64,000 nucleotides of DNA, from the NCBI GenBank assembly GCA_030740155.1, contig JASLXV010000067.1, positions 70,144 through 134,143 on the forward strand. Direction: 5' to 3'. Positions within the stretch are counted from its first letter, which is position 1; every line of letters starts with the position of its first letter. The position numbers and the translations under genes are program-made. Shown piece after piece: positions 61,819 through 64,000 of this stretch. Under the pieces are notes generated by a model. The model saw only the letters and a list, made by a program, of their open reading frames with translations, ran no database searches and was not told the origin of the DNA. This stretch comes from Dehalococcoidia bacterium. GTDB lineage: Bacteria; Chloroflexota; Dehalococcoidia; Lucifugimonadales; UBA3495.

Positions 61819-62760
61819 TCACAGCCGCGCGCCGGCGAAGTGAGGGTGGCCCAGAAGGAACTCAGCGGCCGGCATGGCGCGGCGGCCTTCCACCTGCACG
61901 GTGCGCAATCCCAGGATGCCGTCCCCGGTGCCCACTCCCACAGGGGCATCCCTCGACCCCAGCAGCGTCACTTGGCCTGGAGGAACCGGCGGAGCGCCCG
62001 TCCGAGGCAACGGGGTTACGTCCAGGAGCTTGAGCACCCTGCCCTCCCAGCGAGTGAACAAGCCCGGCCAGGGAGAGTAAGCCCGGCAGCGCCGGTCCAG
62101 CGCCAGTGCAGGGAGCGTCCAATCGGCCTGTCCGTCGGTGCGCTCCAGCTTGCGGGTGGCGGTGGCCCTGGAATCATCTTGGGGTTGGGCCTCGATCCGG
62201 CCCGCCGCCCAGGGCGCCAGGCACCGGAGCAACAGATCCGCTCCCAGTTGGAATAGGGAGGCGGTCAGTGTCTCGGCGGTCTCCCGGCCGGACAGGGGAT
62301 ACCCTTGCTGGGAGATTATAGGCCCGGTGTCCATCCCCTGGTCCAGCAGCATGAGAGTGACCCCGGTGGAAGCCGCGCCCTCGACGATGGCTGTTGCCAC
62401 GGGTGAGGGTCCCCGGTACAGCGGCAGCATTGACGGGTGAAGGTTGAGGCAGCCGTGCGCCGGGGTATCCAGGACCTGGGCCGGCAGCAGCTTGCCGTAG
62501 GCCGCCACCACAATCACGTCGGGTTCGAGACCGGCCAACTCTTGCTGCGCCTGCTCCGAGCGCAAATTCGGGGGCTGGAAAACCCGCAGACCCTGGGCCG
62601 CGGCGTGGCTTTTGACCGGGGGGAACTCCATCGGGCGGCCCCGGCCTTTGGGACGGTCCGGTGGGGTGTACACCCCGACCACCTGAACGTCCGGAGCGGC
62701 GGCCAGGGCTTGCAGGACGGGGACGGCGAAGGACGGCGTTCCCATGAAAACCAGGCGCAT
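61819..62760 (-). CDS. fmt: Methionyl-tRNA formyltransferase
   Basis: FMGTPSFA, PDRPKGRG, AAYG, NLHPSMLP.YRG, GMDTG. Confidence 0.98.
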   Translation of the reverse strand: MRLVFMGTPSFAVPVLQALAAAPDVQVVGVYTPPDRPKGRGRPMEFPPVKSHAAAQGLRVFQPPNLRSEQAQQELAGLEPDVIVVAAYGKLLPAQVLDTPAHGCLNLHPSMLPLYRGPSPVATAIVEGAASTGVTLMLLDQGMDTGPIISQQGYPLSGRETAETLTASLFQLGADLLLRCLAPWAAGRIEAQPQDDSRATATRKLERTDGQADWTLPALALDRRCRAYSPWPGLFTRWEGRVLKLLDVTPLPRTGAPPVPPGQVTLLGSRDAPVGVGTGDGILGLRTVQVEGRRAMPAAEFLLGHPHFAGARL

Positions 62761-62964
62761 TGACCCTCCGGGGGCGAAAGGTGATCCGCGGTTCGGTCGC
62801 GGAGCGGTCGAGGAGGACCCTCAATTGGGATGCCTCCTGGTTCCCGACGGCAGGGACCCTTCACCAAGGCTCCGATTTCGTCGAAGCCATCTCAACCATG
62901 TAGGGGAACTTGAAGAAGGCTAGGGAGCATGTGCGGTTTCCCCTGCGGTGAGCCCTGGTCTGGC

Positions 62965-62994
62965 TTGACATTGTACCAAGGCGATTGCTAGAAT
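62965..62994 (+). promoter_or_regulatory. Sigma70-type promoter with extended -10
   Basis: TTGACA-N18-TAGAAT, TG at 62986-62987. Confidence 0.7.
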
Positions 62995-63037
62995 GCGGAT
63001 ACCGCTTGGCGGAATCTGGCGAAGGAGGTGAGAGTGC

Positions 63038-63109
63038 ATGGATGTAAGTTTAGCACGCAGGGGCGATGGTAGGCATCTGTCTGGACGCGACGAGGTGATC
63101 GTTTCCTAA
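63038..63109 (+). CDS. 23-aa small ORF MDVSLARRGDGRHLSGRDEVIVS
   Basis: AAGGAGGTGA SD at 63022-63031, 6 nt before ATG. Confidence 0.5.
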   Translation: MDVSLARRGDGRHLSGRDEVIVS

Positions 63110-63301
63110 TTACCCTTCGTTAACATACGAGAACCCGTTTGTCGGGCCCAGGCCAATGCTTACCATCGCCCCTACGGATTTGGAAACGCAAAGGGCGAAT
63201 TTACCGCGGATTGGCTGGGCCCGATCCCATTTTAATGATGGCGACGCTCAAGAGTTGACCCGGATTCGGCAAGAACCTTAGAGATATACTCAGAAAACGC
63301 C

Positions 63302-63332
63302 ACCCCGGCTGGACCGGGGTTTTCGTTCGTTT
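63302..63332 (+). terminator. Intrinsic terminator
   Basis: ACCCCGG-CTGGA-CCGGGGT followed by TTTCGTTCGTTT. Confidence 0.75.
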
Positions 63333-63360
63333 GGTGGCCGGTGGAGGCGTGTCGTAAAGA

Positions 63361-63389
63361 TTGACAACCGCGCACCCTCGGCCTAAAAT
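63361..63389 (+). promoter_or_regulatory. rpsP promoter
   Basis: TTGACA-N17-TAAAAT. Confidence 0.75.
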
Positions 63390-63431
63390 TCTCCTAGCAT
63401 AGTTGCCAGCATACGACGTATCGGAGATTGC

Positions 63432-64000
63432 ATGTTACGAATTCGACTTAGAAGGGTGGGGAAGAAGGGGAATCCGTCATACAGGATCGTGGTCGCCGAG
63501 GCTACCGCGCCTCGCGACGGTGCCTACCTGGAGTGGATTGGCAACTATGACCCAATGGTTGATCCGCCGACTTCTACTATCAAAGAAGACCGGGCTGCCC
63601 AGTGGCTGAGCCGCGGGGCCCAGCCGTCGGACGCGGTGCGGCGTATCCTGGACAAGGCGGGGATTCTGGACCGGATTCCCCAACAGTTGTCCGCCGCTTC
63701 TGCTGCCAAAGCCGGGACGGATTCAGAGGCCGCCAACGGCGCAAGCGCGGCACCGGCCGCCGTGGAGAAAGTGGCCGACGAGCCGCCCGCCGATGAAGCC
63801 CCCGCGGCAGTGGCCGACGAGCCGCCCGCCGAAGAAGCCCCCACTGCAGAGGCTGACGAGCCGCCCGCCGATGAAGCCCCCACCGCAGTGGCCGACGAGC
63901 CGCCCGCCGATGTAGCCCCCGCCGCAGTGGCCGACGAGCCGCCGGCCGATGAAGCCCCCGCCGCAGTGGCCGACGAGCCGCCAGCCGATGAAGCCCCCGC
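63432..64000 (+). CDS. rpsP: 30S ribosomal protein S16 with long acidic C-terminal extension (runs off window; not in ORF track)
   Basis: Manual translation MLRIRLRRVGKKGNPSYRIVVAEATAPRDGAYLEWIGNYDP...WLSRGAQPSDAV. Confidence 0.97.
   Translation, partial: MLRIRLRRVGKKGNPSYRIVVAEATAPRDGAYLEWIGNYDPMVDPPTSTIKEDRAAQWLSRGAQPSDAVRRILDKAGILDRIPQQLSAASAAKAGTDSEAANGASAAPAAVEKVADEPPADEAPAAVADEPPAEEAPTAEADEPPADEAPTAVADEPPADVAPAAVADEPPADEAPAAVADEPPADEAP
63771..64000 (+). repeat. 39-bp tandem repeat (five full units plus a truncated sixth) encoding VADEPPADEAPAA
   Basis: Units start at 63771, 63810, 63849, 63888, 63927, 63966. Confidence 0.95.

Follow-up and report, generated by a model that had tools for sequence, protein, structure and literature searches.

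A conserved stand-alone RNA gene of SAR202-type Dehalococcoidia, proposed to act as a translation-sensing switch

Leader-peptide attenuators such as trpL and hisL, as outlined in PMC1183508, carry a Shine-Dalgarno (SD) sequence and a short ORF with a rare regulatory codon, and a strand of the ORF competes with a terminator-like pairing that is followed by a U-tract. The Bacillus toxin mRNAs txpA and bsrG are, in the account of PMC8167048, short stand-alone mRNAs with a 10-11-nt SD pairing and long internal pairings. 6S RNA (RF00013) forms a long irregular rod and is present as one copy per genome, and the sRNA Ms_IGR-5 (RF02471) is described as uncharacterised where it is treated in bioRxiv 10.1101/2021.12.14.472595.

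The traits listed for attenuators, toxin mRNAs and 6S RNA recur in a short element near the end of the window, which is the whole 64,000-nucleotide stretch of Dehalococcoidia bacterium DNA that was analysed (assembly GCA_030740155.1, contig JASLXV010000067.1). A preliminary description of this DNA had placed a promoter, the SD AAGGAGGTGA, a small ORF, a terminator and a separate rpsP promoter here, and all of them were found where it had put them. The features of the locus, with the SD compared against a 16S 3' tail read from the same genome, are as follows.

61819-62760, minus strand: divergent neighbour, an fmt-like formyltransferase gene (PF00551 and PF02911)
62965-62994, plus strand: sigma-70-type promoter, TTGACA-18-TAGAAT with TG, 11/12 matches
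63002-63012, plus strand: 5' mini-hairpin CCGC-loop-GCGG, 92.7% of cells paired in 58 homologues, no double changes
63022-63031, plus strand: Shine-Dalgarno AAGGAGGTGA, a 10-nt complement of the genome's own 16S 3' tail
63038-63109, plus strand: 23-codon ORF, start and stop register conserved, no Pfam match
63047-63052, plus strand: codons 4-5, AGT TTA, with AGT in 114/128 and TTA in 125/128 homologues
63059-63091, plus strand: 5' arm of the rod within the ORF, made up of arm a (63059-63076) and 63079-63091
63110-63119, plus strand: pyrimidine-rich apical stretch, candidate mask of the SD with the rod open, in part of the family
63141-63155, plus strand: arm c, the switching strand, with 63079-63091 (rod) or c' as partner
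63156-63173, plus strand: arm a', closing the 18-bp basal helix, 99.5% of cells paired, double changes at 6/18 pairs
63210-63233, plus strand: arm c' and U-tract, predicted conditional terminator T1, 10-bp core 95% paired
63302-63332, plus strand: intrinsic terminator T2, hairpin at 63302-63320, sequence not conserved
63361-63389, plus strand: rpsP's own promoter, also detected in 51/55 homologues with rpsP downstream (hand count)
63432-64000, running off the window, plus strand: rpsP, ribosomal protein S16 (PF00886, E 2.7e-20)

The element has the short ORF of an attenuator, with its SD, a fixed stop and an overlapping strand 1, and across the family it folds in silico into mutually exclusive pairings, one of which is a U-tract terminator (families f5 and f51 and locus L154 have a separate terminator). 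Unlike an attenuator, however, it has no consistent downstream operon, and often another terminator or a separate promoter lies beyond it; it has one codon rather than a run, its rod of 31-33 pairs is near-invariant, and its terminator-like pairing spans a 50-60-nt insert. No operon lies directly downstream on the same promoter, as rpsP is separately promoted and the neighbours vary across families. Having no regulated gene, the element is therefore attenuator-like yet outside the class. Set against txpA and bsrG as PMC8167048 presents them, it lacks a hydrophobic peptide, a conserved frame and a detected antisense gene (the antisense search covered convergent consensus promoters only), and it occurs once, on the chromosome, at a stable housekeeping locus. 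In contrast to 6S RNA, it has no large central bubble, its 5' and 3' ends are unpaired, and it carries an SD and an ORF; RF00013 gave no 6S match in the genome. RF02471 was rejected, with no match at the locus (E up to 10) or at ten homologous loci (E up to 5), and its best score in five genomes was 18.8 bits, elsewhere than the locus, against a membership threshold of 45 bits.

The preliminary description had recognised no known RNA here, and an Rfam search of 62000-64000 at E up to 10 bears this out: nothing matched over the element, and three chance matches lay outside it. Ten homologous loci gave just weak terminator-like matches and an unrelated T-box. The genome's tmRNA, RNase P RNA and SRP RNA were considered and set aside, as its copies lie elsewhere, each above cut-off. 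The 16S, 23S and 5S genes sit on three different contigs of the genome, and two 23S motifs lie about 2,530 nt apart (G000:C32:146656-149190), presumably about 550 nt above the E. coli spacing, suggesting an insertion or intervening sequence.

The unit had been put at about 330 nt. As read from the alignments, the conserved unit is about 235 nt long, ending near 63235 at the U-tract after c', and the terminator at 63302 is found in about half of the relatives: a T2-like hairpin of unrelated sequence was seen in 32/58 homologues by a rough detector and hand count, and no second terminator was detected at 26/58 family loci. A DNA search matched 57/60 genomes of the family. A covariance model built on 40 homologues matched the sister families f5 (4/4), f14 (4/4) and four f51 genomes at 93-107 bits and, weakly, f41 and f39, for 21/151 genomes of the order in all, and the model (R1) gave just three weak matches in 150 further genomes of the class. 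When half of the species collection was scanned by pattern, 120 loci emerged, of which 100 were scored; the 78 titled Dehalococcoidia, Chloroflexota or SAR202 reached 78-173 bits, and the other 22 stayed below 22 bits. The SD-AUG-UUA pattern occurred in 1/300 other genomes of the class and 0/200 of the phylum, and viral contigs gave no match to the element; these class, phylum and viral searches are samples with a loose first look, in which a locus not found is not an absence. Two loci were discarded, L094, a weak match in the order that proved to be the start of an ordinary gene, and L048, which held no real match, and alignment A1 leaves out L045 (cut by a contig end) and L066 (masked bases). 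Counts such as those among 128 distinct homologues overstate independence, since the homologues are related to one another.

These comparisons indicate that the element is a conserved, structured RNA family, new for SAR202-type Dehalococcoidia and present in its own family and at least three sister families. Literature searches turned up no title or abstract that describes an RNA of this kind, although large motif catalogues in supplements or in other journals could contain one. The novelty proposed at the outset thus holds, with no Rfam match and strong conservation, and two outcomes that could have undone it did not occur: the element is single-copy in the genome, not a multicopy REP pair, and it shows strong conservation with some covariation in the rod. 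Three small low-G+C genomes of the family (L045, L046, L047) have a shortened form with a 10-codon ORF, no TTA, an altered 5' hairpin, a short apical region and a long U-tract. Distant promoter-SD-micro-ORF-hairpin units of 17-28 codons were also noticed in other Dehalococcoidia families (L091:1501-1644, L092:1501-1641, L093, L104, L105:1501-1655); that of L105 directly precedes birA and that of L092 precedes a T-box leader. The covariance model weakly matches two 17-codon units (L091 and L092, E ~1e-8) and the 24-codon unit before birA (L105, E 0.002), and these three share with the element an SD-AUG-AU-rich start and a terminator-competing hairpin, although the signal of kinship is weak. No mini-gene was found before the window genome's own birA.

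A promoter scan of the region found two promoters, at 62965-62994 and 63361-63389, against 0.2 expected in shuffles, and the first predicts a start site at about 63000-63001. The TTGAC...-10 site recurs upstream of 124/127 homologues. In L032 and L033 the usual promoter and 5' hairpin are missing directly before the SD, and the promoter is possibly some 55 nt farther upstream. The loop of the mini-hairpin ranges from 3 to 8 nt among homologues. The GGAGGTG core of the SD is present in 127/128 homologues, which were picked on this motif, and AGGAGGTGA followed by ATG occurs at 10 sites in the genome. The ORF has 23 codons in 111/128 homologues and 10, 11, 19 or 20 in the rest, and codon 24 is a stop in all 83 distinct 23-codon ORFs (TAG 49, TAA 34); on sequence grounds this TAG/TAA exchange at a fixed position appears to be the best sign of real translation. 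A second ORF, from an ATG in arm a', was rejected as not conserved (6 to 90 codons or open).

No codon of the genome is rarer than TTA (749/683,761 codons in 1,490 long ORFs; CTG is 45x commoner), and at codon 5 it is invariant in 83/83 distinct 23-codon ORFs with no synonymous change, although it is lost in three low-G+C genomes. It is also 5x commoner in codons 2-10 than later (4.2 vs 0.8 per 1000), which counts against a rare-codon role, and the conserved TTA could be a site at the RNA level rather than a codon. A purine follows UUA in 126/128 homologues and gives TAA or TAG in the +1 frame; this +1-frame stop (63050-63053) may be a frameshift exit or purine bias alone. Across the 128 homologues the helix begins 20-24 nt downstream of the A of AUG. 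In a comparison of spacings its distance from the AUG was 21-24 nt and the SD-to-AUG spacing varied from 11 to 16; the position of the helix is tied to AUG and not to the SD.

The region 63000-63335 folds beyond chance (z = -3.5, 0/100 shuffles), as does 63056-63176 (z = -7.9, 0/200 shuffles). The preliminary description had paired arms a/a' (21 nt, one mismatch, one G-U), b/b' and c/c' (15 bp, one bulge), all of which read as it claimed, and had noted that in their interleaved order these helices would form pseudoknots or alternative folds. Alternative folds remain, of a/a' and c/c'; the three-helix pseudoknot is not supported, as b/b' is paired in 43% of cells over 58 homologues and in 43% of cells in shuffles, and so is chance. 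Helix a/a' extends inward by 63079-63091 with 63141-63153 into one long rod that already holds arm c. The rod comprises 31-33 pairs and, taken with the 5' hairpin, is 98.7% paired over 58 homologues, with double changes at 7/33 pairs (0/500 shuffles) and slid controls at 33-43% paired; in a family-balanced set (n=23), double changes occur at 11/31 rod pairs. The majority of rod pairs are invariant, and invariance alone is no proof of pairing. The inner 5' partner of arm c in the rod is conserved (99.5% paired). The exact sequence of the basal helix is kept across families, three frames and loci of 39-65% G+C.

The lowest-energy fold was the rod in 58/58 homologues and c/c' in 0/58. With 63022-63091 blocked in folding, c/c' of at least 8 bp formed in 53/58, with a median gap of 14 kcal/mol. 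The rod is predicted to be the default state, with c/c' taking over once the 5' arm is occupied. At least 5 T within 8 nt 3' of c' are found in 100/117 homologues; in the window genome this tract has only four consecutive T. Evidence for c/c' differs between families: against 200 shuffled tails it was beaten by 0-1 in f14 (4/4 loci) and by 1-4 in f51 (4/4 loci), five family-f1 loci had 1 to 27 shuffled tails as good, and in f5 16-70 were as good, that is, no better than chance. Covariation of c/c' inside the family alignment did not exceed shuffles (152/500), and across families it was weak (12-32/500 on three measures, 412-474 on two), with f5, f14 and L154 out of register in the cross-family alignment. 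The SD is paired with the apical region in 53/117 homologues when the arm is blocked, against 3/117 in the rod fold, and the window genome's own apical stretch pairs the SD no better than shuffles (p 0.43).

The gene downstream is rpsP at 55/58 family loci. Other neighbours take its place in three family members and in all sister families examined; the gene after the RNA converges on it in f5, and c' is followed by an ordinary terminator in f5, f51 and L154. On these comparisons the RNA gene is a stand-alone one, independent of neighbouring genes. Mobile-looking genes (restriction-modification-like, IS-like and VapC-like frames, by eye) adjoin the RNA in L015, L054, L055, L049 and L089, as if the locus attracted insertions in several genomes. 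The S16 encoded beside it in the window has a long, low-complexity, acidic tail with ADEPPADEAP-like repeats (63432-64000, at least 189 codons, running off the window).

The reading preferred here, with a probability of about 0.5, is that the stand-alone RNA gene acts as a translation-sensing switch. A ribosome-coupled switch had been among the options first proposed, and sequence, alignments and folding uphold it as the likeliest logic. A ribosome would load on the strong SD. The leading edge of a ribosome lies about 11 nt ahead of its P site, and it would meet the rod when codons 4-5 are at the decoding sites. A ribosome that moves past the rare UUA would unzip the rod, upon which c' would capture c and the rod could not re-form; without successful initiation, or with a ribosome waiting at UUA, the rod would persist and transcription would continue to T2. 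Brisk translation would thus give the c/c' fold and stop transcription at T1; in some members of the family the c/c' fold would also hide the SD. Since an ordinary terminator follows c' in f5, f51 and L154, termination is not a universal output, and since no gene is regularly found downstream, the amount of RNA in the rod form is likely what the switch delivers; the RNA itself is probably the output. The sequence of the basal helix is frozen beyond what pairing requires, suggesting that a sequence-specific double-strand-binding partner likely reads it. RNase III can be guessed at as the first candidate partner of the rod; it is present in 5/5 genomes, and the long duplex consists of the 18-bp helix and its extension. 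Arms a, a', c and c' showed no complementarity to the 5S, tmRNA, RNase P and SRP RNAs (longest 9 nt), their complementarity to 16S and 23S was within the range of shuffles, and a 15-nt arm-a pattern with 2 mismatches found no shared target in five genomes.

RNA libraries contain traces of the element: 20/23 listed RNA runs hold part of the stretch, and contigs lie over or beside the element in libraries of four studies. In X3 the sole piece on 2.2 kb is a contig of 63062-63240 with no differences from the window, X2 has a contig of 63079-63262, and X7 is covered only after 63247. The contig in X1 (63079-63431) runs through both terminators, which counts against a role in termination. These contigs mark presence in RNA libraries, in which DNA may also be present, rather than ends, strand or level. 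The SD-AUG part is poorly covered by contigs in all four runs, and as contigs cannot show ends, this is not taken as 5' trimming.

Among the alternatives, the RNA may be a clamp or chaperone of ribosomes that holds the 30S subunit through the 16S 3' tail and a second 16S site and parks it before the rod; the first 13 nt would contact the CCGC-ACAA-GCGG region of 16S, and release would be the task of the ORF and c/c'. This would suit an SD complement of 10-11 nt, and the first 13 nt (63001-63013) are near-complementary to the CCGCACAAGCGG region of the genome's own 16S (G000 contig C25). The 5' hairpin gives the best 16S duplex among seven segments relative to shuffles, the two best of 64 3-nt loops on a fixed stem are the two commonest loops (68/109), and the 16S site beats 289/300 genomic control sites that are self-complementary in the same way. 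However, the p of about 0.04 comes from a scan of seven segments against rRNA and does not survive correction, 11/96 random G-C hairpins pair equally well somewhere in 16S, and the 16S site is self-complementary. It ranks in the top tenth for just 16/38 distinct motifs (the pattern had picked 3 of the 38 wrongly), and three genomes keep a 5' hairpin of different sequence. The proposed site is, we assume, paired inside the mature 30S, which also counts against the clamp. A clamp is unlikely on this balance, and the second 16S contact, a matter of predicted pairing, is a lead only.

It is rather unlikely that the element is instead a structured non-coding RNA whose rod is the working part, with the SD and ORF merely protective in that a bound ribosome blocks 5' decay, and with c/c' a mere long-looped terminator. 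A TIGR00649 gene, which we take to belong to the RNase J family, is present in 4/4 genomes, and RNase E/G in 0/4 tested. The nearly invariant helix sequence would also fit, and in Bacillus 5' roadblocks such as stalled ribosomes stabilise the RNA downstream, as reported in PMC3997798. Protection, however, needs neither the fixed stop at codon 24 nor the invariant UUA; c/c' is retained in f51 despite a separate terminator, and its formation requires partial opening of the rod.

Regulation of the rpsP operon in cis by a leader-peptide attenuator, in which stalling at UUA would lead to read-through into rpsP and the genes behind it, would account for the classic 1:2 versus 2:3 layout with its U-tract and for a rare codon, since rare regulatory codons give attenuators their sensitivity according to PMC1183508. 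It also agrees with the prevalence of rpsP as the next gene, with the loci in which no second terminator was detected, and with the 4/55 homologues in which no rpsP promoter was detected upstream of rpsP. It is made improbable by the promoter that rpsP has of its own in nearly all such homologues, by the second terminator at many of the family loci, that of the window genome included, and by the sister families, in which the RNA is retained although the genes beside it are unrelated, convergent or served by promoters of their own.

That the gene serves to make its peptide, like a type I toxin gene or another gene for a small protein, with the folds restraining synthesis, is very improbable. 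Codons 22-23 vary synonymously within the family, as a coding role would have it, and very strong SD pairing is given as a feature of txpA-type toxin mRNAs in PMC8167048. Yet the peptide is polar and lacks any hydrophobic stretch. Across codons 9-20 it is the bases that are frozen, and most changes there are non-synonymous. Among the sister families all three frames are in use (10-23 aa), and the sequences are unrelated after codon 7. In f14 and the three low-G+C genomes the stop falls within arm a, which leaves 10-11 codons; in f51 the arm is read in a third frame (19 codons), and f5 has 20. As the frame in which the rod is read differs in the sister families, the encoded peptide is unlikely to matter. 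A convergent promoter consensus for an antisense RNA was found in 1/112 homologues, and the viral contigs gave no match, so that the toxin mRNA first suggested is not borne out. Least credible is a fixed H-type pseudoknot of a/a' and c/c' that stimulates frameshifting or pausing at UUA: both helices can be drawn together, a helix begins 7-9 nt after UUA and the following purine supplies the +1-frame stop, but the conserved rod partner of arm c would be needless, and there is neither a conserved tandem slippery heptamer nor a longer product in any frame.

The translation-sensing reading may extend to a new class of RNA, which is possible but doubtful at present: a gene-less housekeeping mini-mRNA whose near-perfect SD captures ribosomes, whose hungry UUA holds them before the sequence-specific rod, and whose fold translation flips once into a locked second state, possibly with a second 16S contact at its 5' end. 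Ribosome-driven switches are known as leaders for the gene behind them, whereas here the same logic is conserved across families without such a gene. The frozen helix and the lack of a gene behind it point to an unrecognised trans-acting report of translation state. If the new-class reading is true, the cell would read its translation capacity from the shape of an RNA.
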